Below, in pieces: positions 1,203 through 18,533 of a DNA stretch of 57,673 nt. The position numbers and the translations under genes are program-made. Below the pieces are notes generated by a model. It had not been told where the DNA came from. It ran no database searches and saw nothing but the letters and a program-made list of their open reading frames with translations. Numbering within the stretch: position 1 is the first letter of the stretch; every line of letters starts with the position of its first letter. The DNA lies in the NCBI GenBank assembly GCA_964484945.1, contig CAZAHB010000005.1:1-57673 (forward strand). The letters are read 5' to 3'. This DNA comes from an uncultured Armatimonadia bacterium. GTDB lineage: Bacteria > Armatimonadota > Zipacnadia > Zipacnadales > UBA5352.

Positions 1203-4200
1203 CTACTCCCCCTCCAGCCACTGGACGACATTGCGGAGCAACTGCTCGCACGCCTCAACCGTCAGTTCCCCTGTCGGGTTCTCGCGCTTGATGACATACC
1301 GATCCGGGGATGGTTGCACCACCAGTACCGACCCGCCCGCCTGCGCCTGGACGATGGATGGATTTCCGTTACTGTCACTCGCCAGCACGGTCCAGTCGTC
1401 ATCGATCGAGGTGATGCTGTCGTATGAGATGCACCCTCCAAGCAGACCCGCCCCATCGGCAAAGAGCGGGTGATCGGGCTTGACGACTTCCCCGAGCATC
1501 GTGGTCTCGTTGGAGAGCGTCAGAGGCAGAGGCAGGAACGCAGGCTCGTGTGTCATGTCCTGAAGCTGAATGAAGGCCACCCGCCCCCCGGCGTCAATGA
1601 AGTCCAGAAGCAGCGGCCAGTTGCTATTGAGGCCCCCAAAATCCTTATAGTGTGCCTCAGATCCAACCAGCAGCGCGTCGTAGTTCGCGAGCACCTGCGG
1701 GGTCAGCTCGGCGACTGTGGGAAGTTCCACGCCCATCTGCACCAGCGCGCCCGCGACCGGGTCGCCCTCGCCGGTCAGCAGGGCGAGCCCCTCGCCGATG
1801 GCCAGGTCCCGCGCGTGGCGGGTTCTCGCTGAAAGCGTACCCTCGGTTTCGCCGGCTGTGTAGCGCAGCTTGATCTCTCCCTGACCGTTACCGGTGAGCT
1901 GAATCGTTGGGCTCAGCGTCACTCCGCCTCCGGCCGTCCACTCGACCTCGCTGCGGTCCGCGGTCAGCCCGTCGGGCAGTGAGGTGATTTCGAGGCCGGC
2001 GGGGATCTCCTGCCGGCTCGGATTGTTCACGCGAAGCGCCAGCAACCCCGGTCCGTCCGCGGGCAGGTAGACCGTATCTGACATCCCCACGGTCGGATCA
2101 GGCGCCGGTGGCGCCGGCATCTCGGTCATCCCCCACCGCTGCATGGCACTGAGCGCGAAGGGCGTCATGCGAAGCTGCATCGCGTAGCCCTTGCCTGAGC
2201 CCGATGGATTGTGGTTGAGGATCATATCGCCCATCGTCCTGACCAGCATCTCGCGGTATATCTCCGCGTCGGTCAACTCATAGGCGTAGGCGAGCCCTTC
2301 GTAGGTTTGCGTACTCGCGCCGCTGGCCCGGTCGTCAAACTGCGGGCACTGGGCGTACTGGAAGCCGTTTTCCTCGGGGACCCACATCCGCCAGCGCAGC
2401 CAGTCCACCGAGCGGGTCAGCGCGTTCTTCACGTCCGGGTCCGGGTCAACCTGGTCGAGCATCTTCAGGCCCGTCATGACCACGCCGGTCATAAACGCCT
2501 TGCCGCCCATGTGCTTGACCTCGTGCTCACACTCGCCGATGGGATGTATGAATGTGCCGGTTCCCGGGTCCTGCCGGGCGATTGCGTTCTGGGTGAAGAG
2601 CCGGGCCGCATTGAGGTACCACGGGTGCGGAATGACGTGATAGCCGCCCAGAGAGGCGATTGTGGACCAGCCCTGGGCGCGATGGACCCACTTGTGCGTG
2701 GCACGCGCCTCCTCACGCGCGAACCAGTCGCACAGCAGCCTGCCGGCCTCCAGGTAGCGGCGGTCGCCGGTCAAACACCAGGTCGTCATAACGCCCTGGG
2801 ACCACATGTGTCCGGTGTTCCAGATGCCCGCGTGGAACCAGTACTTCGCGTCTTCGGGGCGCTCGAGGTCCCAGCCGCCCACGTGGCCGATGCAATGCGC
2901 CTTCTGCAGGCCCAGCACAGACTCATTGGGGGCGACGCTGACTGTATCCACCGACGCGGTGTGGCGCGCCGCCTCCTCCGCGCGGTCGAAGAAGCGCCAG
3001 TCACCGGAGCGGACGAACTGCAGCAATAGGCCCCACTGCAGGTCATACTCCTGGTTGGTCCAGTTGACCCAGCGCTCCCCGTGCGTGTCGCCGAAGTTCA
3101 TCCAGTCATACTCGCGCACACGCTGCCGGCGCTGCTCCAGGCGCTCGAACCCCTCATCAATCCACTCCTGGTAGTGCTCGAAGGCGCCCTCCCGCTCGGG
3201 TTCGAGATCGCCGAAGCCGCCTGACGCGCAGTAGTGCTCGGGCCAGGCCGCCAGGAGCGGCATCTGTTGCCATGCATCGGCGAGATGCTCGTTGATCGCC
3301 TGGTCCTCGCCGAGCGCGTAGAAGAGCATGTCGTAGCTGAGCGACACGCCCATCGGGACCATGTACTGCCCGTCCCGACACCAGTAGTAGTACCGCGTCC
3401 GTTCAAAGGGCGTGAGGCCTTCATCCGCGTACTGGTCGGCGGGCAGGTCGGGGAATATCTCCGCAGTGACCGTGCGGCCCTCGGCGGAGAAAGCCTTCGG
3501 ATACGTCTGCCAGAAATCGCGCAGAGCGACCGTCATCCCGCGACTGTCCGAATGCAGGCTTCCTGTCGGGGTAATGTGCCCGGAGTGCTCCTCGGACTGC
3601 CCGTCTTCGGTAACGATGTAGTGGTTCTCGTAGTCGTGCAGCACGCGCCTGGACGGCGAACTCGCGTCACCGGGAAACTGCACCGGAATGTCGAGCGACT
3701 GTATGTTCGTCATCGTCGGCGGCCGCACCGCTTCCCCCCGGTCGCCGATCAGCGTGAAGACCGTCGGCACACCCGCGAAGCCTCGAATGAAGTACATCCG
3801 GCAGCGCCAGCCCAGTGAGGTTCCTGCATCGCCCGCGAAGTGGCCCTCGGCCAGCACGACCGTGCGGACCGGGCCTTCCTCCTCCACGACCAGGCGCTCG
3901 ACCGGCGCGCCGGCGGTGGAGTAGCGGTTGCCCTTTGCATCCATCAGCACTGCACCATCGGTGGCGGAGATGCACTGCTCATCCGCAGCGAAGGTACCGT
4001 CACCGTCGATGTCGCGCCAGATGTCTCCCGGCGGCGAGAAGCTCTCGCGGGAGATGTCCGCGCGCAGCACGTCGGTGGTCACGCGCAGACCGGAGGATGT
4101 CTCCTCAACCCGAATCGGCTCGGGGACCTCCGGACGCGCCACGCCCTCGCCGTACTCCAGCACGTACTCTCCGCCCTCGTGCATGAGGCTCACGAGAAGC

Positions 4201-6410
4201 CACTTGACCGATCCGTCCGGCCACCATCCAAGCTCCGTGAAGTCCGCCGCGACCGGCTCCCCGCCCTGCAGCACGCGGCAGTGTTCGGCGTCGCGCAGGT
4301 GTCCCTCGGGGATCGGCACACCGCCCCTGACTGGCCACGTCGGGCGATCCTCGAGCGGATCGGTGACCGCAAGCTGAATCCGCGCGCGATCCACGCTGCA
4401 GCGCTCGGGGCGCGGGAATTCGGCCACGAACGTTCGCGTCTGTCCGGTCACCTGGCCCTCACCGGCACCCGCGATCACGCGGTAGCTGTAGGTGGCACCG
4501 CGCTCGAGATCCTCGAGGCGAACACGGTGGTTATATGTGGCGCGCTCCTCGCCGGCCGTCTGGTTAAGCGCATCTCCTCTGCCCCACTCGACTCGCGTCA
4601 GACACGGCATGTTCGTCAGCGCGCAGATATCGACATCGACCGCATCGCCCGACTGGGCCGGCGGGCAAAACGCCGTCACGTTCTTCAGTGACAGGCTCTG
4701 CGGCTCCAGCATTTGCTCGGTGAGCGTCAACTCCGTAATGCGAGCGTCCTGGGCGGGTCCATCAGCGATGAACTCGATCGGCGTACCCTCGTCAAGTGAC
4801 ACCTGCTCGGGCGTCGAGAACACGTGGATCAGGCCATCGTTGTCGGCGGCGACCATCGTCGCCACGGTCTCGCCATCGACGCGAAGCTGAACCTCCTCGC
4901 GGCGCTCTGCAGAGTCCTGCAGCACCACGTTAAGGTGATAGTCGCCCGCAACGGGTGACGTGACCGTCGCGGTTGCGCCCTCCTCATCGGCTACGACCGC
5001 GTGGTCCTCCAGGTGCATGCCCTCAAGGTCGGCTTCCGCGAGGTCGACGTGCAGCGCGTCCATCTCGCGAAGCTGCTCGCGCCAGTACAGCCAGGGGCTC
5101 TCCACCCAGACCCCATCGGAGAGGACCTCCGACAGAGATCCCACGCGCGGCTTGGTGCGCTGGCTTTCACCCGGGCCGCAGACGGTGAACCACTCCGTGT
5201 TGTCATTCCCGCCCCCTTTGACCTTCTGCTGGCTCAACACGTGGGCGCGGTACTCGGTGTTCCCCTCTTCATTGTGATAAAGCTGCAGGTCCATGGAGAA
5301 GTAGATCGAATTGCCGTCAATGACGCCCCGCACATCTCGATCCTTCGCAAGCACATCGGCATTTCTGATGCTCCTGCCGAACGCTCCGGCGTTGCAGGTG
5401 AGCATCATGTCGGTGCCGCGCACGTGGCCATTGTCCTGGCGGCCGGTGGAGCGGTCGTTGTCGCAGTCGAGGTAGAGGATGATCAGCGTGCCGCCCGAAT
5501 CATCGTACTCCTCCGCGAAGTCAATCCTCCATATCCAGCGATTGCCGGCCGCGTTACCGAAGTAGATCTTTCCGATGTCATTGGCGTGCTCGAACGTATC
5601 GTCTTCGTCCCCGCCCGGCTTCGTGCCGTCCTCGCCGATCAGGTGCATGCTGTCGGCGTGCTCCGATGACATGCCCAGGACTTCCTCGACCGCATCCGAG
5701 ATACCGTCACCGTCGGCGTCCGGCTCATCCGTGCTCAACTCGGCAACGGGCGCACGCTCCGGCGGAGGCCCGATGCGCGGCTTCTCCGCATCACGCCGCT
5801 CGGGCAGGACAACCGGATGAAACTCCATCGGGTCGGAATCACTGTTTTGCGGAGGTGAGACGTGAGAGAGCACCCTGAAGCGCGGTTGGCCCGGCCCTTC
5901 GCCGAGCGGGAGGTCGGCGCAGACGTACATGGTATCGCCCACCGCCATCATGCGCAGTGGGCCCTGCGCGAGGCTCTTTGTGTGCTCGGTGAGGTTGAAC
6001 TCGCCATTCGCCTGGACGTACATCAGGTCGGTGCCGCGGGCCCATTCGGCATCCTGCCGGCCCGTCGTGAGGTCGCCGTCCACATCGAGGTAGAGGATGA
6101 ATGTGTTGTTCTCGCCGACGTAATCGTCCGCGAATGTGATCTTCCACAGCCAGCGGTCCTGTGCCACATTCGCGAGGTACACATCGACGAAGTCCGGCGC
6201 TTCCTGATGGTTGTTCGATACACTCTCATCATCGTCGCCGATGACGCCGTCGTGCCATTGCAGGGCGAATTCCTCGGCATGATCCGGGGCGGCACCAAGC
6301 TCCTGCTCGACAGTGTCGGCGATGGTGTCACCGTCGGCATCAGCCTGCTGGGCCAGACAGGGCGTAATGGCCATAGCGAGGATCACAAAGGCGATAGCGA
6401 TGCGCTGCAT
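1203..6410 (-). CDS. large secreted multidomain protein (1735 aa) with exo-rhamnogalacturonan lyase (PcRGLX/YetA-like) core
   Basis: Signal peptide, two ~200-aa N-terminal repeats, an FN3-like segment (TRVEWG..NHRVRLEDLERGATYSYRV), then GVPIPEG..WWPDGSVKWLLV and YDWMNFGD..NQEYD..RAEEAARHTASVD..GHMWSQG motifs typical of this family; GGAGG RBS. Confidence 0.7.
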   Translation of the reverse strand: MQRIAIAFVILAMAITPCLAQQADADGDTIADTVEQELGAAPDHAEEFALQWHDGVIGDDDESVSNNHQEAPDFVDVYLANVAQDRWLWKITFADDYVGENNTFILYLDVDGDLTTGRQDAEWARGTDLMYVQANGEFNLTEHTKSLAQGPLRMMAVGDTMYVCADLPLGEGPGQPRFRVLSHVSPPQNSDSDPMEFHPVVLPERRDAEKPRIGPPPERAPVAELSTDEPDADGDGISDAVEEVLGMSSEHADSMHLIGEDGTKPGGDEDDTFEHANDIGKIYFGNAAGNRWIWRIDFAEEYDDSGGTLIILYLDCDNDRSTGRQDNGHVRGTDMMLTCNAGAFGRSIRNADVLAKDRDVRGVIDGNSIYFSMDLQLYHNEEGNTEYRAHVLSQQKVKGGGNDNTEWFTVCGPGESQRTKPRVGSLSEVLSDGVWVESPWLYWREQLREMDALHVDLAEADLEGMHLEDHAVVADEEGATATVTSPVAGDYHLNVVLQDSAERREEVQLRVDGETVATMVAADNDGLIHVFSTPEQVSLDEGTPIEFIADGPAQDARITELTLTEQMLEPQSLSLKNVTAFCPPAQSGDAVDVDICALTNMPCLTRVEWGRGDALNQTAGEERATYNHRVRLEDLERGATYSYRVIAGAGEGQVTGQTRTFVAEFPRPERCSVDRARIQLAVTDPLEDRPTWPVRGGVPIPEGHLRDAEHCRVLQGGEPVAADFTELGWWPDGSVKWLLVSLMHEGGEYVLEYGEGVARPEVPEPIRVEETSSGLRVTTDVLRADISRESFSPPGDIWRDIDGDGTFAADEQCISATDGAVLMDAKGNRYSTAGAPVERLVVEEEGPVRTVVLAEGHFAGDAGTSLGWRCRMYFIRGFAGVPTVFTLIGDRGEAVRPPTMTNIQSLDIPVQFPGDASSPSRRVLHDYENHYIVTEDGQSEEHSGHITPTGSLHSDSRGMTVALRDFWQTYPKAFSAEGRTVTAEIFPDLPADQYADEGLTPFERTRYYYWCRDGQYMVPMGVSLSYDMLFYALGEDQAINEHLADAWQQMPLLAAWPEHYCASGGFGDLEPEREGAFEHYQEWIDEGFERLEQRRQRVREYDWMNFGDTHGERWVNWTNQEYDLQWGLLLQFVRSGDWRFFDRAEEAARHTASVDTVSVAPNESVLGLQKAHCIGHVGGWDLERPEDAKYWFHAGIWNTGHMWSQGVMTTWCLTGDRRYLEAGRLLCDWFAREEARATHKWVHRAQGWSTIASLGGYHVIPHPWYLNAARLFTQNAIARQDPGTGTFIHPIGECEHEVKHMGGKAFMTGVVMTGLKMLDQVDPDPDVKNALTRSVDWLRWRMWVPEENGFQYAQCPQFDDRASGASTQTYEGLAYAYELTDAEIYREMLVRTMGDMILNHNPSGSGKGYAMQLRMTPFALSAMQRWGMTEMPAPPAPDPTVGMSDTVYLPADGPGLLALRVNNPSRQEIPAGLEITSLPDGLTADRSEVEWTAGGGVTLSPTIQLTGNGQGEIKLRYTAGETEGTLSARTRHARDLAIGEGLALLTGEGDPVAGALVQMGVELPTVAELTPQVLANYDALLVGSEAHYKDFGGLNSNWPLLLDFIDAGGRVAFIQLQDMTHEPAFLPLPLTLSNETTMLGEVVKPDHPLFADGAGLLGGCISYDSITSIDDDWTVLASDSNGNPSIVQAQAGGSVLVVQPSPDRYVIKRENPTGELTVEACEQLLRNVVQWLEGE
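5180..6341 (-). repeat. internal tandem domain duplication (2 copies, offset 207 aa) in the 1735-aa protein
   Basis: Aligned pairs: DADGDTIADTVEQELG/DADGDGISDAVEEVLG; RWLWKITFADDY/RWIWRIDFAEEY; ILYLDVDGDLTTGRQD/ILYLDCDNDRSTGRQD; RGTDLM/RGTDMM. Confidence 0.85.
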
Positions 6411-6586: not shown

Positions 6587-7270
6587 TTACGGCCACGCAG
6601 GGTCCATGCGGAAGTCCTTCTTTGCGTAGGTCGTGGGCGGGTAGTTCGCGTGAGGTGCGCGTTGTCCACTGACCCACTTGCTGTGACCGTCACAGAAGGC
6701 GTAGTTCGATCCGCCATTATGCTGCGCATAGCGCCAGCGGAAGTTCTTGGAGCCGGAGTCGGCTTCATTGAACCACCTACCGTAGGGCAGCGTGCCCTCC
6801 TGCTCGACGAGGAGGATGACATTCGCCGGTTCGGTGATCCGGGCCAGCTTCACCGGTTGAATGTAGCAGAAGTTGTAGTTCCAGCCGTAGTCAACATCGT
6901 AGTCGATGGGCACGGAGCCGCCGCCCGCGGGCGCTCCACGGATGTAGTCGTATCTGCCGCTGGGGCACCGCAGGATCTGCTCGTTCTTCAGGTAGGGCTC
7001 TATCCGCACGAACCAGAAGGTGTCGCCCGCGGGGTCCAACAGCCGGAGGGGGTCAGAGGTATCGCTCGTGTGATCCTGCATGGGCAGCTTCTCATCGTAA
7101 TCCTGAGCATACATGAGCACACCCAGGGCGATCTGCTTCATGTTGCTGAGGCACGAGGACTGCCGCGCTTTCTCGCGCGCTCTCGCGAATACAGGAAAGA
7201 GAATTGCTGCAAGGATCGCAATGATGGCGATCACGACCAGCAATTCGATCAGGGTGAAACCGCGCTTCAT
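6587..7270 (-). CDS. DUF1559 / prepilin-type N-terminal cleavage-methylation protein with H-X9-DG motif
   Basis: [46 protein letters not shown].. and C-terminal [16 protein letters not shown]; GGAGAGG RBS before ATG 7270. Confidence 0.93.
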
Positions 7271-7311
7271 GATGATCACCTCTCCAAAGTGATGTCGCTA
7301 TTGTCTATTGT

Positions 7312-8055
7312 TTAGAGCAATGGCTCTCCGTCACCTTCCCGGGTGGCACACTTTTTCGCCACAATCATCAGCCACGGCACATGAAGAAAAGGCGACCACG
7401 TGTCTTCGGAGGTGCCGGCGAGTTCGCGGGCTCCGGCGACGCGTTCTCGCTGGCGGGCGGTCAGGGGCAGGTCAGCCAGCAGGTCCAGCGCCTCCGGCTC
7501 GGCTTCGCGCGGGATGTGCGCAAACTCCACCCAGGGCTCCAGTCCCGCCTCTTCGGCCAGTTCAGGAAGTTTCCGGCCCATGAGCGGATCGGCGCCGGCG
7601 CGCTCCAGGGCATCGAGCCAGACCACGCGGAGGCCGAGATCCGGGTGTTCGAGCATGCCCCCATAATCCGGCTCCAGCGCGACCAGCACGCCGCCTGCGC
7701 AGAGAGCCCGCGCCGCCTCGTGGATGGCCCCATGCGGCTGATCGATCCACATGAGCGCGTTCTGGAAGAAGACAAGGTCGAAGCTCCCCCCGGCGAAGGG
7801 CAGATCACGGGCATCGGCGGCGGCAGACACGTGAGACGCAGGGGCGATGTCGATGCTCACGACCTCGCCCCGCGCGCGGCGGCGAAGCTCATCTGTCACA
7901 AAGCCGTGGCCGCACCCGACCTCCAGCACGCGCTCACGGCGACCGATCCCGGCCCTCCGCAGGGCACGCGAACGCGGTCCCTGCAGCCAGTCAGCCAGAA
8001 GCCCTGACAGCTTGCGCGACGGGCGCTCGGGGCTGGCGTGCTCCTCCCCGATCAG
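7312..8055 (-). CDS. class I SAM-dependent methyltransferase (start uncertain, probably CTG at 8055)
   Basis: Motif I VLEVGCGHG, ADARDLPFAGGSFDLVF, GGVLVALEPD; no ATG/GTG/TTG between the upstream stop and motif I. Confidence 0.82.
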   Translation of the reverse strand: MIGEEHASPERPSRKLSGLLADWLQGPRSRALRRAGIGRRERVLEVGCGHGFVTDELRRRARGEVVSIDIAPASHVSAAADARDLPFAGGSFDLVFFQNALMWIDQPHGAIHEAARALCAGGVLVALEPDYGGMLEHPDLGLRVVWLDALERAGADPLMGRKLPELAEEAGLEPWVEFAHIPREAEPEALDLLADLPLTARQRERVAGARELAGTSEDTWSPFLHVPWLMIVAKKCATREGDGEPLL

Positions 8056-9863
8056 CGGCCACCTCCCGCGCAAGCGCACGCACACGCGCAGCCCGCGCAG
8101 GCGCATGCACAGCCGCCGCCTCCGCTGTAGCCGCCGCCACTGCCGCTGGATTCGGCCATCGACTCGAGGAAGTCCATGCCGACCTTGTCCACGCCTGAAA
8201 GGTCCATGACACCGCCATCCGTGATGCCAACCGAGACGGGATCCATCGTTGAGGCCATGTTGCCGGCCACGTTTTCAGACCATCCGGCGAATGATGCGGC
8301 GACATCGCCGGCGGTCGTCCGCCCTCCCACGGCCGGGCCGCTGTCGGACCGTCCGCCGAGGGCCGGGCCTGCCCACCGTGGCGAGTAGTGATAGCCGCCG
8401 GTGTGCCAGGTGTGGAAGTGGCGCCGGCGGTCGGTATCCAGCATCAGCCACCCGATGTTCTGATCGACGAAGTCGTCTCGCTTCTCGACATCGCCGATTG
8501 TGCGGGCTTCCTTCCACGCCTTGTATACGATCGATTCGTAGTACTCCTTCGTACGCTCCAGATCGAACCCCTCCATGCGCTCAACCACGCCGTCAACGAG
8601 CGCCTTTACCTCCTTGCTGAGGTCAAGGTCGGGGATCGGGGTGCCGGGTTTCTCCATAATCGCGTCAAGGAATGGCTGCTCGTATCCGCGAATGACACTG
8701 CCACTCTTCGCGGCGATCTTCCGTCGCTCACCGCGAGTCGTCCGGTACGGTTCCGCCACCTCGACGGTGAGCGGATCGTCGCGCGTCATCGCCACGAGCC
8801 CCTTCTGCAGCATTCCGAAGATGAGCAGTGTGAGCACATCGCCCAGCGCCCGCACAAGCAACACTGCAGCCTCCGGGGCGGTGAGCCCGCGCTTGATCTG
8901 ACCGCCGGGTACCGACTCGATGGGCGGGAGATAGGAGCGCTTGCTGGACTCCAGCAGGCGCTCGCCGAAGATGAACAGCAGGATCAGCACCGGGATGCCG
9001 ACCAACTCGATGGCCGGCCCCACACCATCGGGGAGCGTCCACGTTACAGGGATCGCGATCACGAGCGGGATGAAGAGGCAGGTGCCCGTGCCGGCGGTGA
9101 GGCGAAAGTACCAGATGCTGAATGCGACGAGCATCAGAATGCCGACAATGGTGCGCGCGCCGCTGCTCTCGGTCCACCACTTCCATGCCAGGTCCCAGAC
9201 GGTCTGCTTGATGACCCGATCCATCCAGTCCTTCGGGAAGGAGACGTCAACCATGTGCTCGCCGGTCATGGTGGTGGCGGGAAAGCGCCACATGACGGCC
9301 TTCTTGCTTTCCAGCTCTGCCTTCTGGGTGAACTTCTTCAGACGGTACTTCACCCGCTGAAGATCGACGGAATCGGGCAAATAGACCGCGATCAGCAGGT
9401 CAGTGGTGTCCGTGACAAAGGCCGACCCCCAGTAGGTGGGTGTGATCTGCAGAATCGCCAGCTTCGAATCGGTCGTGTCCTGATAGACCATGTCGGGCAT
9501 GGTGGCCTGGAAACGGAACGTACCGGTCTCACCGGGCTGGACAGCCGGACTAATCGGGACCTCAACGCCCGTGTCGATGTAGGTGGACGGCTTGATACCC
9601 GACAGCGGCGTCCCGTCAACCGACGCGCTCATGTTCGAAATGTCGTAGTCGTCATGCGGCAGGCCCATGTCCACTACATCGATCGGATGGGCGCCCTGGT
9701 TGCAGTGGAACTGGATCGTGTAATCAAGCGTCACGGAGGCGTCCGGGTTCGGCGTTAACTCCAGGACCATCCGCGGCACCGAGAACGAGTAGTCCTGAGC
9801 TGCCGCGGGCATCGCCAGCACGATCAGCACAGCGACCAAAAGTGTCCATCGCGCGATCCTCAC
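8052..9863 (-). CDS. DUF2207/TIGR04222-like integral membrane protein with Gly/Ser linker and Cys-Ala repeat C-terminal tail
   Basis: Signal peptide, ~210-aa extracytoplasmic beta-rich domain, 3-4 hydrophobic helices, GLTAPEAAVLL segment, cytoplasmic domain, end SSGSGGGYSGGGGCACACAGCACACACAGGGR*; GTG start overlaps the upstream stop (GTGA). Confidence 0.8.
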   Translation of the reverse strand: MRIARWTLLVAVLIVLAMPAAAQDYSFSVPRMVLELTPNPDASVTLDYTIQFHCNQGAHPIDVVDMGLPHDDYDISNMSASVDGTPLSGIKPSTYIDTGVEVPISPAVQPGETGTFRFQATMPDMVYQDTTDSKLAILQITPTYWGSAFVTDTTDLLIAVYLPDSVDLQRVKYRLKKFTQKAELESKKAVMWRFPATTMTGEHMVDVSFPKDWMDRVIKQTVWDLAWKWWTESSGARTIVGILMLVAFSIWYFRLTAGTGTCLFIPLVIAIPVTWTLPDGVGPAIELVGIPVLILLFIFGERLLESSKRSYLPPIESVPGGQIKRGLTAPEAAVLLVRALGDVLTLLIFGMLQKGLVAMTRDDPLTVEVAEPYRTTRGERRKIAAKSGSVIRGYEQPFLDAIMEKPGTPIPDLDLSKEVKALVDGVVERMEGFDLERTKEYYESIVYKAWKEARTIGDVEKRDDFVDQNIGWLMLDTDRRRHFHTWHTGGYHYSPRWAGPALGGRSDSGPAVGGRTTAGDVAASFAGWSENVAGNMASTMDPVSVGITDGGVMDLSGVDKVGMDFLESMAESSGSGGGYSGGGGCACACAGCACACACAGGGR

Positions 9864-11122
9864 TGCACCTCACCACCTTCGCGGTCATCGCTCCAGCCAT
9901 CCGGGTCCCTGGGGCAGTCTGCATTGCAGATCGGCAGGTCCGGGCAGTCCGCACACCTCGTGGGCGCCTTCAGTCGCTCGCGGTAACGCTCAAAGACATC
10001 GTGCGCCCAGATCTCGCGCCATGGCGATTCGAGGATATTCCCGGCGCTCTCAGGGCCACGCGCGGGCCAGACGGTGCCGTCGGCACTGACACGGACGGTC
10101 ACGTCCGCCGATGTCCGCGGGCCCTCGCGCACCTGCTGAGCAAGGCCCTTCGCGGAATTAAAGCGTTTCGGGGGCGCCCAGAGGTAGCGAGAGTTCGTGC
10201 GCTCGGACAGTTCGAAGAAAGTCGTCGCCACCTGCGGCAGTGCCCTGGCCGGCAGCGCGCCCGAGGCATCGCCGGCCTCATCCTCGTCCGGGCAGGCGAT
10301 GGCGAATCCGACGACGTTGGTAACACCCATCTCCAGCAGGCCCTCCGCAATGTCATCCATCTCGGCGAGGTTGCTGTCCATCAGCGGCCACTGCGCGACC
10401 GGCGCAAGCTCCAGTTCCCGGCACTGCTCCACGGCCGATTTGAACGCCTCGCAATCGCCCACACCCGCGGTCTCGTCATGCCCGTCGGGATTACTGCAGA
10501 CGTACAACATGTCGAGGTGGTCGAGGCCGGCCATCGCGCACTTCTCGATCACGTCAGCGGGAAGCCATCCCGCCAGCGCCCGCAGCCCACAGATCATGCC
10601 GATGTCCTCAGCGGCCTCCACCAGCAGCGCGAGGTGCGCCCGTTCGCCATCAGAGGCGGCCTGTATGGAAACGTGCGGCACGCCCGCATCCCACAGTGCG
10701 CGGATGATCTCACGGAAGCGCTCGGGCCTGCACTGATCGACGTCCGCGCGCAGCGGCGCTGCCAGCTGGCGCTCCCAGTGCGAGAGTTCAGGGTCGGTGA
10801 GATTCGTCACCGGGTAGTTGTCACCGGGCTTCGCGAGGTCCTCGATCATGTTGTGGACGTGGCCCAGGTCGGCGCGGACCTGATTTTCGGGAGCCCCGCT
10901 GAACTCCGAGGTGATCTCTTCGATGATCTCCTGATCGGGGCGCTCCTCCAGCACGCCGGCGGCCATCGTCACTCCGACCGGGGACAGCCACGCTGCCTCG
11001 GCGGCGTTTGCCAGCAGCAGGCCGCTGCCGTCAGGGTCCACTCGCAGATGAAAGCGCGTCGGCCACTCGCCCACCAGCATCTCATACGGCCGGATCGTCA
11101 CGTCGCTTGCGCTCTCTGACAC
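9860..11122 (-). CDS. degenerate radical SAM/SPASM paralog with PqqD/RRE-like N-terminus; lacks CxxxCxxC
   Basis: Collinear with the upstream enzyme (HLRVDPDGSGLLL, APLRAD, LWDAGVP, LAGLDHL, GNIL..W..IW) but missing the cluster-binding segment; keeps only CADCPDLPICNADC. Confidence 0.8.
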   Translation of the reverse strand: MSESASDVTIRPYEMLVGEWPTRFHLRVDPDGSGLLLANAAEAAWLSPVGVTMAAGVLEERPDQEIIEEITSEFSGAPENQVRADLGHVHNMIEDLAKPGDNYPVTNLTDPELSHWERQLAAPLRADVDQCRPERFREIIRALWDAGVPHVSIQAASDGERAHLALLVEAAEDIGMICGLRALAGWLPADVIEKCAMAGLDHLDMLYVCSNPDGHDETAGVGDCEAFKSAVEQCRELELAPVAQWPLMDSNLAEMDDIAEGLLEMGVTNVVGFAIACPDEDEAGDASGALPARALPQVATTFFELSERTNSRYLWAPPKRFNSAKGLAQQVREGPRTSADVTVRVSADGTVWPARGPESAGNILESPWREIWAHDVFERYRERLKAPTRCADCPDLPICNADCPRDPDGWSDDREGGEVQ

Positions 11123-12540
11123 CGGCTCATCACCTCATTTCTGGCCACCCGCTCCAGCGGACAGCCTCCGCCACATACCCGAAGATCCTCGCATTCGAGA
11201 CATTCGGCAGGCAGGTCAGCGTTCTCCGGCCGCTCCCGGCGGAAGCGAATCCGGGTGAAAAGCTCAGACTCCCAGATGCGATCCCAGCGGTCACGGAGGA
11301 TATTGCCGACCGGCTCGTAGTAGGACTGGCAGGGCAGGACATCCCCGTTGGGCTCCACGCAGATGGAATACTCCGCGGCGTTGCAGAATGTGAGGCCGAC
11401 GTCCACCTTCATGGGCGAAAGCTCACAGTGCCGCGTCACGGTGTACCAGATGAAGCGCATATCGCGCTCGGCGGCCCGGTCGCGCACGCTCTCGAGGACC
11501 TCGCGCAGCCTGCCGATGCTCAGCGCGGAAAGGTTTGCGGCCCCGCATCCGGCGTGGATCATCCCGTTCATCGCAAAAGTGCGCAGGCCCAGGTCGTGCA
11601 GGAAGTCAACGATCGGCTCGGCCTCGTCGGCGTTCTCCTCGATCAGCGTGGTGTTCGTGATCGTATGCAGGCCGCGCTCGACACAGTTGCGGATGCCCGC
11701 CACCGTCTCCTCGAAGGCCTCCGCGCGCACAATGCGGTTGTGAAGCTCAGCACGGTGTGAGGCGAGTGTAATCTGCACGTGATCGAGGCCCGCGTCCATG
11801 AGTCCATCGATCAGTTCGCGCTCGCGCAGGCGCCGCCCGTTGGTGTTGAGACCGCAGATCATCCCCAGGTCCTCGGCATGACGGACGATCTCCGGCAGGT
11901 CATCGCGGAGCGTCGCCTCTCCGCCGGTGAGGATCACGTAGGGGACGCCGATCGCCCACAGCCGGTCGAGGACCTCGCGCCAGCCGTCCGTGTCGAGCGC
12001 CGGCATCTCCCGCCGCTCGGGCTCATTGTAGCAGTGCGCGCAGTCGTTGTTGCAGGCGTACGTGAGCGCGAGATCGGCCTTGAGCGGGGCCTGCGCGCGG
12101 ATCGAGAGGGGCTCGGGCTGCGGGATGCCTGCTTCGCACACGCGGCATCCCTCTGAGGGGCGGCTGATCTTCGCTATCGCCGAGCGCACCCGTTCGTACT
12201 CCGCCTCCAGTCCAAAATCGCGCGCGCCCGCGAACCGGGTTCGCAGATAGACGAGGGCGCGATCGGCGGGCACATCATCCAACGCCAGCCCCGCGCATTC
12301 TGCCTGCAGCGGAGAGAGATGCAGCGTGTCGGTCCCGTTCACGATCAGCAGGCCCGTACCATCATCGTGAGTGCGCAAATGCATGCAAACGCGCCCTTCG
12401 GGGCGCTCGAAGCGCTGGTGACGCAGTGAGACGCCGTCACGCCCGTGTGACAGAGCGCCGACTCGCGCGCCCAGTCGGCCGAGGTCCTCCCGCAAGCCGG
12501 CCTTCAGACGCGCGAAGAGCCCACCGTCATCGGCTACCAC
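11098..12540 (-). CDS. radical SAM/SPASM enzyme with N-terminal PqqD/RRE-like domain
   Basis: CNNDCAHC (12031-12054), LTGGEAT, LNTNG, SPASM cysteines C..FCNAAEYSICVEPNGDVLPC..CLECEDLRVCGGGC; extra CRVC before the core. Confidence 0.92.
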   Translation of the reverse strand: MVADDGGLFARLKAGLREDLGRLGARVGALSHGRDGVSLRHQRFERPEGRVCMHLRTHDDGTGLLIVNGTDTLHLSPLQAECAGLALDDVPADRALVYLRTRFAGARDFGLEAEYERVRSAIAKISRPSEGCRVCEAGIPQPEPLSIRAQAPLKADLALTYACNNDCAHCYNEPERREMPALDTDGWREVLDRLWAIGVPYVILTGGEATLRDDLPEIVRHAEDLGMICGLNTNGRRLRERELIDGLMDAGLDHVQITLASHRAELHNRIVRAEAFEETVAGIRNCVERGLHTITNTTLIEENADEAEPIVDFLHDLGLRTFAMNGMIHAGCGAANLSALSIGRLREVLESVRDRAAERDMRFIWYTVTRHCELSPMKVDVGLTFCNAAEYSICVEPNGDVLPCQSYYEPVGNILRDRWDRIWESELFTRIRFRRERPENADLPAECLECEDLRVCGGGCPLERVARNEVMSRCQRAQAT

Positions 12541-12878
12541 TTCGGCTTCTCCTCAAGCTGATAGGAGGTGCCACAGTACGGGCACTTCACGTAGATGGCC
12601 CCTTCCTTCATCTCGATGGCATCGGAACTTAGTTGCGCACCGCACGATTCGCAGCGCAGCTTCTCAAGTTCGGTGTCGCCGGTGAAGTCAACCTTGTGGG
12701 TCACCTTCATCTCCGGGCCCCTGGAGCGGGCGAGGTAGATCATGAAACCGGCGCCGCCAAGCAGCACGATTCCGATGATGACGCGTGGAACAGTGTTGCC
12801 CTGCCCGGACCCGACAAGGAAGACCAGGCCGGCGAGGCCGAGCACGGCGCCGAGCAGATATCCGGCTGTCTTCATCAC
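12534..12878 (-). CDS. small membrane protein, two TM helices plus C-terminal zinc ribbon
   Basis: Two hydrophobic stretches then CESC..CPYC; stop overlaps the start of the radical SAM gene. Confidence 0.8.
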   Translation of the reverse strand: MMKTAGYLLGAVLGLAGLVFLVGSGQGNTVPRVIIGIVLLGGAGFMIYLARSRGPEMKVTHKVDFTGDTELEKLRCESCGAQLSSDAIEMKEGAIYVKCPYCGTSYQLEEKPKW

Positions 12879-13000: not shown

Positions 13001-15304
13001 CTACTCCACAACTAACTCGTGATGGCCGACGCCCCACCGGCCGATGCTGACGATAACGCGCCCGTCCTCGATGTGCCAGCGCGGGCGGGGACCGTAGCTG
13101 GATCGCTGCAACGGTGCGCCCTCCACGACGGCCGCGAATGCATCCTCAATACCGTGCACCACCACCGTGCAATCGCGCTGATCCTGCGCGCCGGGGAAGT
13201 CCCCCTGTGCCGCATCGCAATGCACGCCGACGCCGTCCGCGACCGGTTCGGTGGTGAAACGCTGCGTTCGGAATGCCCCGTCCTCGAAGTCATACGTGCG
13301 CCCGTCATCCTCATAGAGCGTCATTTCACCCGCTGCGCCGGCCCACACGTGGATGCTAAGCTCATCGAGCGGTCGCTGGCCGACATAGTCGGTCACCGGC
13401 CCCATGGGGATGATAGCACCTGCGGGGGCGAGCAGCGGCCCACCGCGCATGTCCGGCACCTCGGGAGTGCGCCAGCCGCCGCCATCGACGGGGTCACCGG
13501 TCCACACGTTGTACCACAGGCCCTCGGGGAGCCAGACTTCATCGGTGAAGCAGCCGACGAGCAGCGAATCGCCGAGCATGAACTGGTGCAGGCACTCATC
13601 GGCCTCCTGCTCGTGCGGCCAGAGCAGAGGCATCGGGCGCATGATGGGCATGCCGGTGCGGTGCGCCTTCCACGCCATGGAGTAGAGGTAGGGGATCAGG
13701 CGGTAGCGGAACTGGACGTACTGCCGGAAGACCTCCTCCATCTCCTCGCCCTGCAGCCACGGGTGGCGGAAGTAATTCCACGAGTTCAGTTGCGCCCACG
13801 GCAGCAGGCAGCCGAAATGAATGCCGTCCGCGCGGTAGGACATCATATCCACAGTGTTGAGGCCGTGCCCGGACATCGAGAGATTCAGGCACGCGACGAG
13901 CGGCTCCTCTCCCCCGCCGGTGTCGCCCGTCCAGGTGCCGGTCCAGCGCTGCACACCGGCCCACCCGTCCGGAGTGAAGGGGAAGGTGCGCTCGGGAACT
14001 GCTGAATCCCGCTCGTCCGTCTCACGGAAGCCCAGGTACATCTGCTTCGAGTACAGCAGCGGGTAGAGATTGTGCATCTGATCGTCGGTCATCCCGTTCC
14101 CCCAGAGCCGGTCGGGGTGCTCGAGGCACTGATAGGCGCCATCCTGCTTGAACCAGTGCGCGCCCTCGAAAACAAACTCCTTGAGGTGCTCGAACCACGG
14201 TTCCTCGGGCCGGGTGATGCGGTCGAGGCGGCGCTGACCCGCGCTCAGGTGCTCGTCCTGCTCATGGCCTTCGGCGAAAAACTCCTGATCCTCATCACGC
14301 GCCGCATCCGCCTCGCGGACCTCATCGTCAACGTGCCGCTCTTCTTCGTAGGAAAGATCGTAGTCATTGCACAGCCACAGCCCCGGTTTGAAGCCCATGC
14401 GCTGTGCGGCGGCGAAGAATGTGTCGCCGGTGCGGGCGTAGCCAGGCACGGGGAAGCGGTCCGGATGCCAGCACTTGTCCACCGTGGCATCGTAGTTCGT
14501 CTCCATCCAGCCCGGCTCCAGTCCAATGGCATCACAGGGGATCTCCCGGTCGCGGAAGTTCCGGCAGTCGCCGAGAAACTCGTACGCGTCAGCCTGTGTG
14601 CGGCAGATGAACCACAGCCCAAAGCCCCACTTCGGCGGCAGGAACGGCCGACCGGTCACGCGCGTGTAGCGTTCGATGATCTCCGCCGGCGACGGCCCGT
14701 AGATTACGTAAAGGTCCAGCACCTCGTTCTCGCACTCGAAGCCGAACCAGTCATCGGATGTAGCGCCGAGATCGTACCACACGCGGCGCGTGGTGTTCAT
14801 CAGCAGCCCGTAGCCGCGCGAGGAGAGCACGAAGGGGATCGGGATGTACTCCTCGACGTTGCGGATCCACAGGTCGCCCTTCGTCCCGCGGTGCTCGATG
14901 CGGTCGCGCGTCTGATCGCCGAGACCGAAGAAGCGCTCGCCTGCGGGAAGCTCGAACCGCGCGCGGAAGCCCGGGTCTGGCCCGAGTATCGGCGGCTCGG
15001 CGCTGACAAACAGCCCCTCTCCCTCGGCACCGGAGACTGCCAGCGAGCCGTCCGCCGCCACGTCCACGGTCATGAACTCACTGGCCGCGAGCGAGGCCCC
15101 CTGTCCGGTCTCCGCGCGAACCGCCACCTCGTCCCACTCGCGCCGCCACAGATCGTACCGCAGCAGCGGCGACATCGGAGGCTCATCACCCTGCCATCCC
15201 CGGATGCGCGCGATTCCCGGCGTGAGGAAGGACACGTCTACGGTCGCGTCATCTGCGGTTAGCGAAAGACCTCGGTCGGTCGTCTCTGCGTTCGAAAGCT
15301 CCAC
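13001..15304 (-). CDS. glycoside hydrolase family 31 (alpha-glucosidase/alpha-xylosidase-like)
   Basis: ERFFGLGDQ, IPFVLSSRGYG, TGRPFLPPKWGFG, FKQDG (nucleophile), WTGD (acid/base), RYRLIPYLYS, QFMLGDSLLV, LYEDDG; GGAG RBS. Confidence 0.92.
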   Translation of the reverse strand: MELSNAETTDRGLSLTADDATVDVSFLTPGIARIRGWQGDEPPMSPLLRYDLWRREWDEVAVRAETGQGASLAASEFMTVDVAADGSLAVSGAEGEGLFVSAEPPILGPDPGFRARFELPAGERFFGLGDQTRDRIEHRGTKGDLWIRNVEEYIPIPFVLSSRGYGLLMNTTRRVWYDLGATSDDWFGFECENEVLDLYVIYGPSPAEIIERYTRVTGRPFLPPKWGFGLWFICRTQADAYEFLGDCRNFRDREIPCDAIGLEPGWMETNYDATVDKCWHPDRFPVPGYARTGDTFFAAAQRMGFKPGLWLCNDYDLSYEEERHVDDEVREADAARDEDQEFFAEGHEQDEHLSAGQRRLDRITRPEEPWFEHLKEFVFEGAHWFKQDGAYQCLEHPDRLWGNGMTDDQMHNLYPLLYSKQMYLGFRETDERDSAVPERTFPFTPDGWAGVQRWTGTWTGDTGGGEEPLVACLNLSMSGHGLNTVDMMSYRADGIHFGCLLPWAQLNSWNYFRHPWLQGEEMEEVFRQYVQFRYRLIPYLYSMAWKAHRTGMPIMRPMPLLWPHEQEADECLHQFMLGDSLLVGCFTDEVWLPEGLWYNVWTGDPVDGGGWRTPEVPDMRGGPLLAPAGAIIPMGPVTDYVGQRPLDELSIHVWAGAAGEMTLYEDDGRTYDFEDGAFRTQRFTTEPVADGVGVHCDAAQGDFPGAQDQRDCTVVVHGIEDAFAAVVEGAPLQRSSYGPRPRWHIEDGRVIVSIGRWGVGHHELVVE

Positions 15305-15482: not shown

Positions 15483-15770
15483 GCGTTTCTGGTAACTCCA
15501 CGACTACCCACCGCTGCAATGCTCTGCCCATTGACCACTCGCTACTTCCTCTGCGAGGGGTTGAGACAACCGGTTGTTGCTTCTGTCGCCCCCGCGCGTC
15601 CTCACGGGCAGGCTCACCCTGGTGCCTCCCGGTCTTTCGTGCTGACAAAGTGCGCCTTGCATCACATCTCAAAGAAGCCATCTTTGGGCATAACGCTGAC
15701 GCCTCCAGACGACCTGTATTTGCTTGCTGATTATCACTGCGCTGCGACGATGATCTGCCGTTACGTGATA

Positions 15771-17054
15771 AGTGCCAGACCGCATCGCGTCGAACGGGCC
15801 GATCTTTCGGTCGCCGAAAGTGATGACTTCCACGAACTCTTCGACGGCCTGAATACGATGCTGGATGCGCTGATTAACCCGCTGAATGTCGCCGCCCAAT
15901 ACATCGACCGCATATCCGAAGGGGATATTCCGGATCCGATCACGGACGATTACGATGGCGACTTCAACGAGATCAAGAACAGCATCAACATGTGCATCGG
16001 CGCCGTCAATCGCCTGATCCAGGACGCCAACATGATGGCCGACGCGGTCGCGGACAAGAAGCTGGACGTGCGGGCCGACCCGTCCCGCCATCGGGGTGAC
16101 TTCGAGCGAATTGTCCAGGGCATAAATGAGACCGTAGAGGCAATGGACCAGGCGCTGGGGCCGGTCGCAGGAGCAATCCTGCAGATCGCGGCTGCGACCG
16201 ACCAGATCTCTCAGGGCGCGCAGACGCTGGCCGAGGGCTCTGCCGAGCAGGCCAGTTCGCTGCAGGAAGTCTCCGCAAGCCTCGAGCAGATGTCGGCGAT
16301 GACCCAGCAGAATGCGGCCAACGCACAGGAAGCCGACAGCCTCTCGGACGTGGCCGCCAACACCGCGAAGAAGGGCAACGAGGCTATGGAGCGGATGTCG
16401 CAGGCCATCAACGACATCCAGCAGTCGTCGGAGGAGACCTCGAAGATCGTCAAAACCATCGATGAGATCGCCTTCCAGACGAACCTGCTGGCCCTCAACG
16501 CCGCAGTCGAGGCGGCCCGCGCCGGTGATGCCGGGAAGGGCTTTGCCGTGGTTGCAGAGGAGGTGCGCAATCTTGCGCAACGCTCGGCCGAGGCGGCCAA
16601 GAATACCGCCAACATGATCGAGGAGGCCGTCAAGAACGCCGAGAGCGGCGTCGCCATCAGCGAGGAGGTTGACGAGGCGCTCACAGAGATCGGCGAGGGC
16701 TCTCGCAGGGTGTCAGAACTCATCGCGGAGATCGCTGCTGCCAGCAATGAGCAGGCAGGCGGCATCGAGCAGGTCAACACCGCCCCCGAGCAGATGGATG
16801 AGGTCACCCAGCAGAACGCGGCCAATGCCGAAGAGTCGGCCTCGGCGGCCGAGGAGATCAGCGCGCAGACCGACGAACTGCGCAACATGGTCGAGGCCTT
16901 CACGCTGTCGGCGGACGTATCGGCCGAAACGCCCTCCGGGACTGATCTGACACTGGTCTCCGATGACGAAAAGACGTCCCAGTCGCGAGAGCCGTCCGGA
17001 GATGAGGCGATCCCGCTTGACGACGAGGATCGCCAGGCGCTCGCGAACTTCTAG
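15771..17054 (+). pseudogene. 5'-truncated methyl-accepting chemotaxis protein (HAMP repeats plus signalling domain)
   Basis: [40 protein letters not shown] signature; poly-HAMP ([28 protein letters not shown]); homology starts mid-HAMP with no RBS, TM or sensor domain; Pro in the signalling helix (VNTAPEQMD). Start coordinate approximate. Confidence 0.65.
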
Positions 17055-17147: not shown

Positions 17148-18533
17148 TCACGGCCGCGGCCGCTTCGTGAAGACATCCGGGGTGTCCCGCGGGAACCATC
17201 GGCCGCTCCAGTAGCACTTCGCGCTGTCGAAGTCGAAGCCATCCTCCTCCAGCCTCGGGTCACCGGTCTCTGACAGATAGTCCAGAAGCTCCTGCTGCAA
17301 CCTCCGGCGGATCGCGTCGTACTCCGGAACTTCCGCGACGTTCACCATCTGATCCGGATCCGTCCGAATGTCATACAACTCCTCGCCGGGCCGCCTGCCG
17401 AAGGCCAGTTCATACAGTGGCGCCACGTCCGGCAGGTCGCGATTCTCAATCATGTAGTCTTTGGTGATGCTCTGATCCACGTCCTGCCGATGATACGGAG
17501 GATCGCCCGCCGGCCAGCGGTCAGGCTCGTAGTTGAGGATGTAGAGGAACTCATCGGTTCGCAGGCACCGCATCGGGTAGCCGACGTCGCCCTGACGGCC
17601 GGTGGTGTGGCGCTCGCGCCCACAGTGGACCCGATCCCGATCGGCATCGACGCGACCGGCGTCACCGCTGCCAAGCACATCGAGGAAGCTGCGGCCGGAC
17701 ATCTCCGGCAGGGGCTCGAGCCCGGCCGCCTCCAGGAACGTGGGCGCGAAGTCGGCGAAGCTGACGAAGTCGGTGACCGTCCTGCCGCCCTCAATCTCCC
17801 CGGGCCAGGCGACCGCCAGCGGCATCCGCGTGCCGTAGTCATACAGGTTGGCCTTCGCGCGGGGGAAGGGCATCCCGTTGTCGCTGGTCACCACGATAAG
17901 CGTGTTCTCGTACTGCCCGGTCTCCTCCAGCAGGCGCAGACAGTCGGCGATCTGGTCATCGTACATCTGGCACTCGAGCAGGTAGTCGGCGATGTCTGCG
18001 CGGACGGGGTCGCTGTCCGGAAGAAATGCGGGCACCTCGACATCATCAAGCTGTATACCGGCGTGCACGCCCGAGCCTTCGACGTAGGGGCGGTGCGGAT
18101 GATAGCTGCCAACCCAGAAGCAAAACGGCTCATCGCCGTCCCCGGCCATGAAGTCACCGAAATCCTCGAAGCGCGGCCCGGCCGGGTTATTCTCGAAGCG
18201 GAACTTCGGATCGCCGGGTCCCCAGCCCTTCCAGCAATGCCCCACGCGGTAGCCCGCCTCGGCAAGTTGCTCGGGGTAGACGCGCCAGCCGGGCCAGGTG
18301 CTCCACAGGTTGCCGGTGTCCTCAAGCTCCCAGTGGTTCCGGCCGGTGAGCACCGACGCGCGCGAGGGCGTGCAGGAGGGTGAGGAGATGTACGCGTTGG
18401 TGAAGATCACGCCCTCTTCAGCGACACGGTCGAAGGCGGGTGTGCGCACGACCGGATCGCCGGCGTATCCGGTATGTGTCCACGACTGGTCGTCGGAGAT
18501 GATGAAGAGGATGTTGGGTCTGTCGGCGGGCAT
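17148..18533 (-). CDS. Cys-type sulfatase (N-sulfoglucosamine sulfohydrolase-like)
   Basis: PNILFIISDD, SCTPSRASVLTG (CxPxR), PHRPY, TSDNGMPFPRAKANLYD, ELYDIRTDP. Confidence 0.93.
   Translation of the reverse strand: MPADRPNILFIISDDQSWTHTGYAGDPVVRTPAFDRVAEEGVIFTNAYISSPSCTPSRASVLTGRNHWELEDTGNLWSTWPGWRVYPEQLAEAGYRVGHCWKGWGPGDPKFRFENNPAGPRFEDFGDFMAGDGDEPFCFWVGSYHPHRPYVEGSGVHAGIQLDDVEVPAFLPDSDPVRADIADYLLECQMYDDQIADCLRLLEETGQYENTLIVVTSDNGMPFPRAKANLYDYGTRMPLAVAWPGEIEGGRTVTDFVSFADFAPTFLEAAGLEPLPEMSGRSFLDVLGSGDAGRVDADRDRVHCGRERHTTGRQGDVGYPMRCLRTDEFLYILNYEPDRWPAGDPPYHRQDVDQSITKDYMIENRDLPDVAPLYELAFGRRPGEELYDIRTDPDQMVNVAEVPEYDAIRRRLQQELLDYLSETGDPRLEEDGFDFDSAKCYWSGRWFPRDTPDVFTKRPRP

Follow-up and report, generated by a model that had tools for sequence, protein, structure and literature searches.

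In the 57,673-nucleotide contig CAZAHB010000005.1 (hereafter, the window), from the assembly GCA_964484945.1 of an uncultured Armatimonadia bacterium, we identified a radical S-adenosylmethionine (SAM) protein that has lost its catalytic motifs and is maintained by selection. The gene (9860..11122, minus strand) encodes a pseudo-radical SAM/SPASM protein of 420 amino acids (pseudo-rSAM), which is a paralog of the intact radical SAM (rSAM)/SPASM enzyme encoded immediately upstream. The original prediction, which was made from the window's sequence, had described this protein as a maintained non-catalytic partner of its neighbor: a scaffold, a second recognition element, or an electron-transfer subunit. 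The partner role now has indirect support, and recognition or scaffolding fits best, with these sub-options not fully separated from each other. We think that the pseudo-rSAM probably partners the active enzyme as a subunit without catalytic activity of its own, providing a recognition or scaffold surface, chiefly via its RRE-like domain. We also infer a physical heterodimer of the two proteins, as well as the use of the RRE-like domain, the identity of the substrate, and the type of chemistry.

The neighboring enzyme (11098..12540, minus strand; 480 amino acids) seems to be fully equipped. It matches the Pfam models for radical SAM (PF04055, 4.1e-28) and SPASM (PF13186, 1.3e-10), and it contains a cluster motif, CNNDCAHC (C163, C167, and C170; nucleotides 12031-12054), a GGE motif, eight SPASM cysteines that are invariant in its family, and an RRE-like N-terminal domain. 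No NCBIfam model reaches its cut-off on this enzyme. BLASTP gave a single collinear alignment of the pseudo-rSAM to this protein (residues 1-404 versus 30-461, 26% identity, E = 5e-38, 131 bits). In this alignment, the 30-residue loop LALTYACNNDCAHCYNEPERREMPALDTDG of the active enzyme lies opposite VDQCRPER (residues 128-135; 10718..10741, minus strand): eight residues replace 30, and the net loss of 22 residues removes the CX3CX2C motif. The single cysteine of VDQCRPER is not conserved across the pseudo-rSAM family. Similarly, the SAM-binding segment LTGGEAT lies opposite IQAASDG (10646..10666, minus strand), which varies within the family, and the ribose motif NTNG is replaced by RALAG in the window's protein. 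The first SPASM cysteines are also gone, with FCNAAEYSICVEPNGDVLPC of the active enzyme aligned opposite TSADVTVRVSADGTVWPARG. The pseudo-rSAM does retain the RRE-like N-terminus, the barrel, and a final CX2CX5CX3C motif, CADCPDLPICNADC (C390, C393, C399, and C403; 9914..9955, minus strand), which is a remnant of the SPASM auxiliary-cluster ligands. These losses and retentions are as originally described, and the replacement of the loop is also apparent as a gap in the alignment of the family.

Comparisons to domain models fit with this picture. The pseudo-rSAM matches the Pfam model for SPASM (PF13186, 27.4 bits, with a cut-off of 21.5) and falls just short with the corresponding NCBIfam model (TIGR04085, 25.2 bits, with a cut-off of 27), and in the Pfam search it had no match to Radical_SAM (PF04055) at E ≤ 0.01. 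Judging from its sequence, the pseudo-rSAM arose from its own neighboring enzyme through an independent duplication.

To place this protein in a family, we used a word-indexed database search, which returned 217 relatives. The best 120 of the 217 were listed; these are 46-83% identical to the window's protein and about 420-440 amino acids long, and the majority are from metagenome-assembled genomes (MAGs) of Armatimonadota. A genome scan identified 308 loci that encode a pseudo-rSAM, of which 80 were fetched, and further analyses were conducted on 85 fetched loci. The fetched loci are from Armatimonadota (Zipacnadia and WS1), Sumerlaeota, Chloroflexota (Anaerolineae, Promineifilaceae, and Ardenticatenaceae), and one Thermoguttaceae MAG. 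Every sequence that we compared is from a MAG, and the window itself had matches solely in DNA runs from lake-water metagenomes.

The loss of the cluster motif is conserved. All 23 of the pseudo-rSAM orthologs that we sampled have the 22-column gap at the cluster loop, and CX3CX2C is found in none of the 120 listed orthologs but in all 119 homologs of the active enzyme. More broadly, the motif is absent from all of the roughly 200 pseudo-rSAM orthologs considered (35-83% identity), including those in the 85 fetched loci. At the columns for C163, C167, C170, and the four upstream SPASM cysteines, all of which are invariant in the active family, 0% of the pseudo-rSAM family have cysteine. The four cysteines of the CX2CX5CX3C motif, on the other hand, are 93-97% conserved, and the motif is present in 114 of the 120 listed orthologs. 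Where the SAM motifs were, the pseudo-rSAM family has conserved motifs of its own: PGDNYP, AEDIGMIxGLR, GALPARxLPQ, RYLWAPP, and GPRT. We also used HMMER to search 1.84 billion representative sequences exhaustively, and 87 matches had E < 1e-30. Among full-length matches above 145 bits, none has CX3CX2C where the radical SAM motif would lie. The highest-scoring protein that does carry it there has 141 bits and 28% identity and is therefore an active paralog.

The gene is also under purifying selection. Its reading frame is uninterrupted for 420 codons. Across 28 pairs of orthologs, Nei-Gojobori ratios of nonsynonymous to synonymous substitution rates (dN/dS) were 0.07-0.35 for the pseudo-rSAM gene, and in the same genomes the active gene gave 0.03-0.34; these values are approximate, as dS is near saturation for several pairs. 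The two genes have also diverged to a similar degree from the window's copies (the median ratio is 1.09). Disrupted copies are rare among the loci that have a pseudo-rSAM: one is frameshifted (L021), and another has lost the SPASM remnant and is fused to another protein (L083). The original prediction had proposed checking the orthologs for a deletion that is conserved under purifying selection, as opposed to retained motifs or random disruptions, and this is the pattern that we observed. We conclude that the pseudo-rSAM is maintained and is not decaying. The idea that it is a degrading pseudogene or an annotation artefact deserves almost no credence: all of the catalytic motifs are lost and one copy is frameshifted, but the frame is open in nearly all of the pseudo-bearing loci and in the 120 listed orthologs, selection is as strong as the dN/dS ratios indicate, the predicted fold is confident, and the family has invariant motifs that are specific to it.

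In a neighbor-joining tree of both families, the pseudo-rSAM proteins form a monophyletic clade (30 of 30 bootstraps), so the cluster was lost once and the loss has been inherited since. The tree was midpoint rooted, and for two loci that lack a pseudo-rSAM (L084 and L085, discussed below), this root does not separate the ancestral state from secondary loss. A single duplication of the upstream rSAM/SPASM enzyme gave rise to the pseudo-rSAM. The duplicate lost the SAM-cleaving [4Fe-4S] site, all recognizable SAM-binding motifs, and one auxiliary-cluster site, while retaining the fold, the RRE-like N-terminal domain (with predicted peptide binding), and the four-cysteine remnant.

The pseudo-rSAM gene belongs to a cassette of five genes on the minus strand (12878-7312), whose start and stop codons overlap from one gene to the next. 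In order, these encode a small zinc-ribbon protein with two transmembrane (TM) helices (~113 amino acids), the active rSAM/SPASM enzyme, the pseudo-rSAM, a membrane protein of ~600 amino acids, and a class I methyltransferase. The frame of the pseudo-rSAM is coupled on both sides, as originally described. Its stop codon shares 4 nucleotides with the GTG start of the next gene (GTGA, 9863-9860), and its start overlaps the upstream stop by either 25 nucleotides (GTG at 11122) or 4 nucleotides (the alternative GTG at 11101, also within GTGA), so that the true start is ambiguous. The order of the five genes recurs in several phyla despite differing, unrelated flanking genes; overall, we found the cassette in Armatimonadota, Chloroflexota, Sumerlaeota, Planctomycetota, and Nitrospirota-like MAGs. 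Considering loci with enough flanking sequence, 57 of 63 have the active enzyme immediately upstream of the pseudo-rSAM, and four more have it close by; 60 of 64 have the membrane protein downstream of the pseudo-rSAM; 56 of 59 encode the methyltransferase; and 55 of 58 encode the small zinc-ribbon protein. The 4-nucleotide overlap between the stop of the pseudo-rSAM and the start of the membrane protein is found in 33 loci. Three loci from Chloroflexota or Armatimonadota (L038, L063, and L070) have an additional 0.8-2.3 kb of DNA between the active rSAM and the pseudo-rSAM.

In some genomes, proteins of the cassette are fused. In one locus (L055, 831-3539; protein P0121), the active enzyme and the pseudo-rSAM are joined in frame into a protein of 901/902 amino acids, and this fusion is found in many contigs from NCBI, JGI, and Logan. 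Split forms of 467 and 433 amino acids fall within the same 90% cluster as P0121. Because covalent linkage of the two proteins is tolerated, the fusion argues that they form a complex. Together with the adjacency in 57 of 63 loci and the frequent overlaps of start and stop codons, it supports pairing indirectly. Another fusion, in L083 (417-3332; P0423; 948 amino acids; found in two assemblies), joins a pseudo-rSAM to the membrane protein. The pseudo-rSAM part retains the RRE and the barrel but not the cysteine-bearing C-terminus. The signal peptide within this fusion would act as a TM anchor, with the pseudo-rSAM domain staying in the cytoplasm. The MAG that contains L083 is labelled as Enterobacteriaceae, which looks like an error in binning or labelling. 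We also considered L021 as a possible fusion of the pseudo-rSAM to the membrane protein, but there the pseudo-rSAM gene turned out to be frameshifted toward its 3' end, and we did not count it.

We used AlphaFold2, with an alignment of 102 sequences, to predict the structure of the pseudo-rSAM. The model has an average predicted local distance difference test (pLDDT) of 86.5 and a predicted TM-score of 0.87. The N-terminal domain is RRE-like (PqqD-like) and covers residues ~9-97 (10832..11098, minus strand), with the family motif PTRFHLRVDPDGxGLLLANA. It is predicted to have four short strands (9-17, 20-28, 34-38, and 41-46) followed by three helices (48-58, 63-73, and 79-97), compared with the three-stranded sheet and three helices of the RRE winged helix. 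A poorly predicted linker (108-117) leads to a barrel of strands and helices (125-315). Within this, residues 125-277 alternate between strand and helix, with pLDDT above 90, as in a partial (beta/alpha)6 TIM barrel. The C-terminal region is predicted with less confidence near the four cysteines: the CX2CX5CX3C segment has pLDDT of 58-61, as expected for a metal-dependent segment. When we compared the model to experimental structures with Foldseek, the best match was SkfB (E = 1.8e-9, 396 columns), followed by SuiB and then by viperin, PqqE, and anSME (E from 1e-9 to 1e-7). A sequence-profile search of the Protein Data Bank (PDB) with the alignment of the family had only marginal matches (BlsE at 0.0037 and PqqE at 0.11).

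The pattern of conservation across these domains differs between the two paralogs. Across 61 matched loci, the mean pairwise identity of the RRE-like domain is 0.48 for the pseudo-rSAM versus 0.39 for the active enzyme, while the barrel is at 0.45 versus 0.60. Thus, constraint has shifted between the domains, and the RRE-like part is relatively more conserved in the pseudo-rSAM. Because of this, and because one lineage dispenses with the cysteine-bearing C-terminus, the recognition and scaffold options fit best. Within the barrel, several polar residues that are specific to the pseudo-rSAM family are invariant (D173, D201, H215, D223, R312, R336, and R344). In the linker between the RRE and the barrel, the active family has a CPxC motif (residues 132-135; nucleotides 12136-12147, minus strand) whose cysteines are 98% and 80% conserved, and in its place the pseudo-rSAM family, with 0% cysteine at these positions, has a conserved PGDNYP(I/V)TN. 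The CPxC may be an additional metal or redox site of the active enzyme.

What might the two proteins act on? The most likely candidate is the membrane protein encoded just downstream (8052..9863, minus strand; 603 amino acids). It does not match any family in Pfam (to E ≤ 10) or NCBIfam, and it is annotated as hypothetical in all sources. According to an AlphaFold2 model (pLDDT 82.9), a signal peptide and a beta-sandwich ectodomain are followed by three TM helices, a loop that is rich in lysine and arginine, a well-folded alpha/beta domain, and a disordered Gly/Ser linker that leads to a tail. The predicted ectodomain (residues 27-210) is structurally similar to the oligosaccharyltransferase protein Ost1/ribophorin I and to the N-terminal domain of M1 aminopeptidases (Foldseek E of about 1e-8 to 1e-7). 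The tail (residues 585-603; 8055..8111, minus strand) is an alternation of cysteine and alanine, CACACAGCACACACAGGGR. Its final 17 residues, CACAGCACACACAGGGR, are identical in all 69 complete loci, which are from several phyla, whereas the rest of the membrane protein drops to 35-40% identity between loci. No two of the 69 tails share a DNA sequence: there are 69 versions, and every codon shows synonymous variation. The same C-terminal ending is found in 115 of 120 database homologs of the membrane protein. With its N-terminus on the outer side and three membrane crossings, the protein is predicted to have its C-terminal domain and tail in the cytoplasm, where the rSAM proteins and the methyltransferase would be able to reach them. 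Another conserved segment, LxGVDKV...LESMAESSGS, lies 25-30 residues ahead of the tail. From its sequence, the segment before the tail looks like a leader that is joined to a core peptide. One locus (L070) encodes two membrane-protein paralogs in tandem (7206-8951 and 8992-10878).

The other two members of the cassette may also take part. The small zinc-ribbon protein (12534..12878, minus strand; 114 amino acids) has two TM helices and a cytoplasmic CxxC...CxxC, and its gene overlaps the start of the active enzyme by 7 nucleotides. Its C-terminus, ...CPYCGTSYQxEExPKW, is almost invariant. The Lys-Trp at its end is reminiscent, in our estimation, of peptides with Lys-Trp cross-links. The last gene encodes a class I SAM-dependent methyltransferase (7312..8106, minus strand; Methyltransf_11 in Pfam, 4e-17), whose start is uncertain. 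The longest open reading frame overlaps the end of the membrane-protein gene (8052-8106, minus strand) by up to 55 nucleotides, and alternative in-frame GTG or TTG starts would give overlaps of 20-34 nucleotides. Since the methyltransferase starts inside the tail-coding end, the codons of the invariant tail are partly dual-coding in the window.

Putting these together, we propose that the pseudo-rSAM and the active enzyme form a heteromeric maturase, in which the pseudo-rSAM would hold the substrate and the active subunit would perform the radical chemistry. The substrate would most likely be the disordered, cytoplasmic (Cys-Ala)n tail of the downstream membrane protein. The methyltransferase would complete the modification of the tail after the radical step, and the small zinc-ribbon protein would probably anchor or organize the complex at the membrane. 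As for the chemistry, rSAM/SPASM enzymes that bear an RRE and act on cysteine-rich cores, such as the maturases of sactipeptides and ranthipeptides, most commonly form thioether-type cross-links at cysteine. Our guess is thioether-type or other cysteine-directed cross-linking. A broader proposal, which we hold tentatively and view as somewhat doubtful when taken as a whole, is that the cassette is a maturation system, spread across multiple phyla, in which a heteromer of rSAM and pseudo-rSAM, tethered to the membrane by the zinc-ribbon protein, adds a new type of modification to the (Cys-Ala)n tail. This might be a ladder of cysteine-derived cross-links, or else a structure that resembles a cofactor or binds metal, with methylation as the following step. 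Here the dead paralog would be the recognition subunit, and a core like that of a peptide that is made by ribosomes and modified after translation (RiPP) would be carried in cis by the 600-amino-acid protein.

Several observations weigh against this interpretation. First, two loci have four-gene cassettes with an identical tail but without the pseudo-rSAM: L084 (5893-9853, from a Nitrospiraceae bin) and L085 (2789-6941, from an unclassified bin). In these genomes, the active enzyme apparently works alone, which implies that the pseudo-rSAM is an accessory subunit. It would then be a lineage-specific addition or loss and not a universal requirement. Conversely, within the fetched loci, L040 and L076 have the pseudo-rSAM and the membrane protein without an adjacent active enzyme. 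Second, the assignment of the N-terminal domain as an RRE rests on its predicted fold and on weak scores: the PqqD profile (PF05402) gives 14.1 bits, with a cut-off of 23.4 (E = 0.062). PF05402 is a precomputed annotation for the fusion protein P0121 and for P0138, a homolog of the active enzyme. Third, the substrate might be the small zinc-ribbon protein instead of the tail, which we consider to be less likely. Finally, the invariant polar residues in the barrel could equally mark a new active site, and the retained CX2CX5CX3C could indicate a redox role instead of, or besides, scaffolding. These last two points correspond to different explanations for the pseudo-rSAM.

If the barrel has a new active site, then the pseudo-rSAM might be a neofunctionalized enzyme that performs a non-radical reaction on the same substrate, such as a lyase, a cyclase, or hydrolytic trimming. 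It would then be a second enzyme of tailoring and more than a passive partner. Strong purifying selection across the whole protein speaks for this, as do the many invariant charged residues in the strands and loops of the barrel (in AEDIGMIxGLR, GLDHL...H, GALPARxLPQ, RYLWAPP, and GPRT). However, it was the barrel whose conservation dropped the most relative to the active paralog (0.45 versus 0.60), and profile searches of NCBIfam, Pfam, and PDB did not give a match to any family of non-rSAM enzymes. Furthermore, other pseudo-rSAM families, which are the nearest curated analogues, are likewise regarded as partners. We therefore consider a new enzymatic activity to be unlikely.

If the cysteines are functional, then the CX2CX5CX3C motif might bind a [4Fe-4S] cluster or another metal and either relay electrons to the active subunit or re-oxidize an intermediate. 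That these four cysteines are nearly always retained (in 114 of the 120 listed orthologs), while the other cluster ligands are at 0%, is consistent with electron transfer, and so is the low pLDDT of the segment, which is typical of metal-dependent folding. But the motif is a fragment of two former sites: by comparison with published SPASM structures, three of its cysteines correspond to ligands of one auxiliary cluster and the fourth to a ligand of the other. The active subunit already has all eight of the SPASM cysteines. Also, the lineage of L083 lacks the entire C-terminal cysteine region, and P0100 lacks two of the four cysteines. A role as an electron carrier seems improbable to about the same degree as a new enzymatic activity, although it might coexist with the recognition or scaffold role that we favor.

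A still less probable explanation is that the dead paralog is a regulatory decoy, which would compete for the tail or sequester the enzyme and thereby time or limit the modification. A well-conserved recognition domain without catalytic capacity would suit a decoy, as would the existence of cassettes that lack the pseudo-rSAM (L084 and L085). However, translational coupling and the tolerated in-frame fusion point to stoichiometric cooperation. We prefer to view the pseudo-rSAM as a recognition or scaffold subunit.

The other genes near the cassette in the window seem to be unrelated to it. On the downstream side, these encode a secreted protein of 1735 amino acids (1203-6410, minus strand) and a DUF1559/H-X9-DG prepilin-type protein (6587-7279, minus strand). 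On the other side are a large, putatively glycoside-hydrolase-like protein (13001-15304, minus strand), a protein that by eye resembles methyl-accepting chemotaxis receptors (15519-17054, plus strand), and a putative sulfatase-like protein with a CTPSR motif (17148-18533, minus strand). We also considered whether the cassette might be a defense system, but the PADLOC models gave only generic similarity to viperin and to methyltransferases, and we rejected this idea.

Other rSAM-like proteins without the cluster have been described. The best NCBIfam match of the window's protein is TIGR04347 (pseudo_SAM_Halo), which is likewise an rSAM/SPASM family without the cluster. However, the match is just 30.5 bits, with a cut-off of 525, and covers residues 137-270 only, so the two are not the same family. 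TIGR04150 (IPR026418), from the GG-Bacteroidales systems, is likewise an rSAM homolog that lacks the cluster and is encoded beside an active rSAM enzyme, along with a precursor peptide. The window's protein did not match it in NCBIfam at E ≤ 0.01, and the phyla are different. The substrate of the TIGR04150 systems is a small exported peptide with a GG leader, while our candidate is the tail of a 600-amino-acid membrane protein. The genes of our cassette do not include a small GG peptide or a transporter, unlike the context of TIGR04150, which has a GG-leader peptide and an exporter of the PCAT type (peptidase-containing ABC transporter). No function has been shown experimentally for the IPR026418 pseudo-rSAM proteins, and a partnership with rSAM enzymes has been hypothesized (PMC10352776). 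In the GeoRSP system, an active enzyme (TIGR04303, rSAM/SPASM) is also paired with an adjacent non-rSAM SPASM protein (TIGR04304). The GeoRSP partner is a short protein with only the SPASM domain, while the window's protein retains the RRE and the whole barrel. Scores for the GeoRSP models are far below their cut-offs (17 bits versus 300 for the partner and 101.8 versus 400 for the other).

Among enzymes of known structure, the RiPP maturases SkfB, SuiB, and PqqE have the same arrangement of an N-terminal RRE, a partial TIM barrel, and a C-terminal extension that is rich in cysteine, and they are the best structural matches. They differ in being catalytic and in carrying CX3CX2C, and their sequence similarity to the window's protein is marginal. 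In the PqqD/PqqE system, the recognition element is likewise a separate non-catalytic protein, but PqqD is an RRE alone and not a whole dead enzyme. A more distant parallel is Dph1-Dph2, from diphthamide synthesis in eukaryotes, in which the cluster of Dph1 is catalytic and the cluster of Dph2 is possibly regulatory (PMC10669111). This is a heterodimer of paralogous radical SAM-type subunits with asymmetric roles; in our system, the heterodimer is inferred. Also, the fold of Dph1-Dph2 is unrelated (its family is a non-canonical rSAM one), Dph2 retains a bound cluster, and the target is eEF2.

In the literature, we did not find any description of the five-gene cassette or of rSAM systems in Armatimonadota, nor anything relevant on non-catalytic rSAM paralogs. 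The tail motif was not found as a peptide, and two matches to the motif were DNA primers. Relative to the known systems, the pseudo-rSAM represents a new and independently evolved family, within an apparently undescribed cassette for the maturation of a membrane protein. Neither of the two rSAM-like proteins has a curated model. The cassette may represent a new way in which a membrane protein is modified after translation. Pseudo-rSAM proteins are annotated in the databases, and none of them has an assigned function (PMC10352776). The family described here is a tractable case because the dead copy adjoins its parent enzyme; because fused, split, and pseudo-less cassettes all exist; and because its likely substrate, a short tail, is invariant across phyla. 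It could reveal whether a paralog without the cluster contributes recognition, processivity, or redox support to its active partner.

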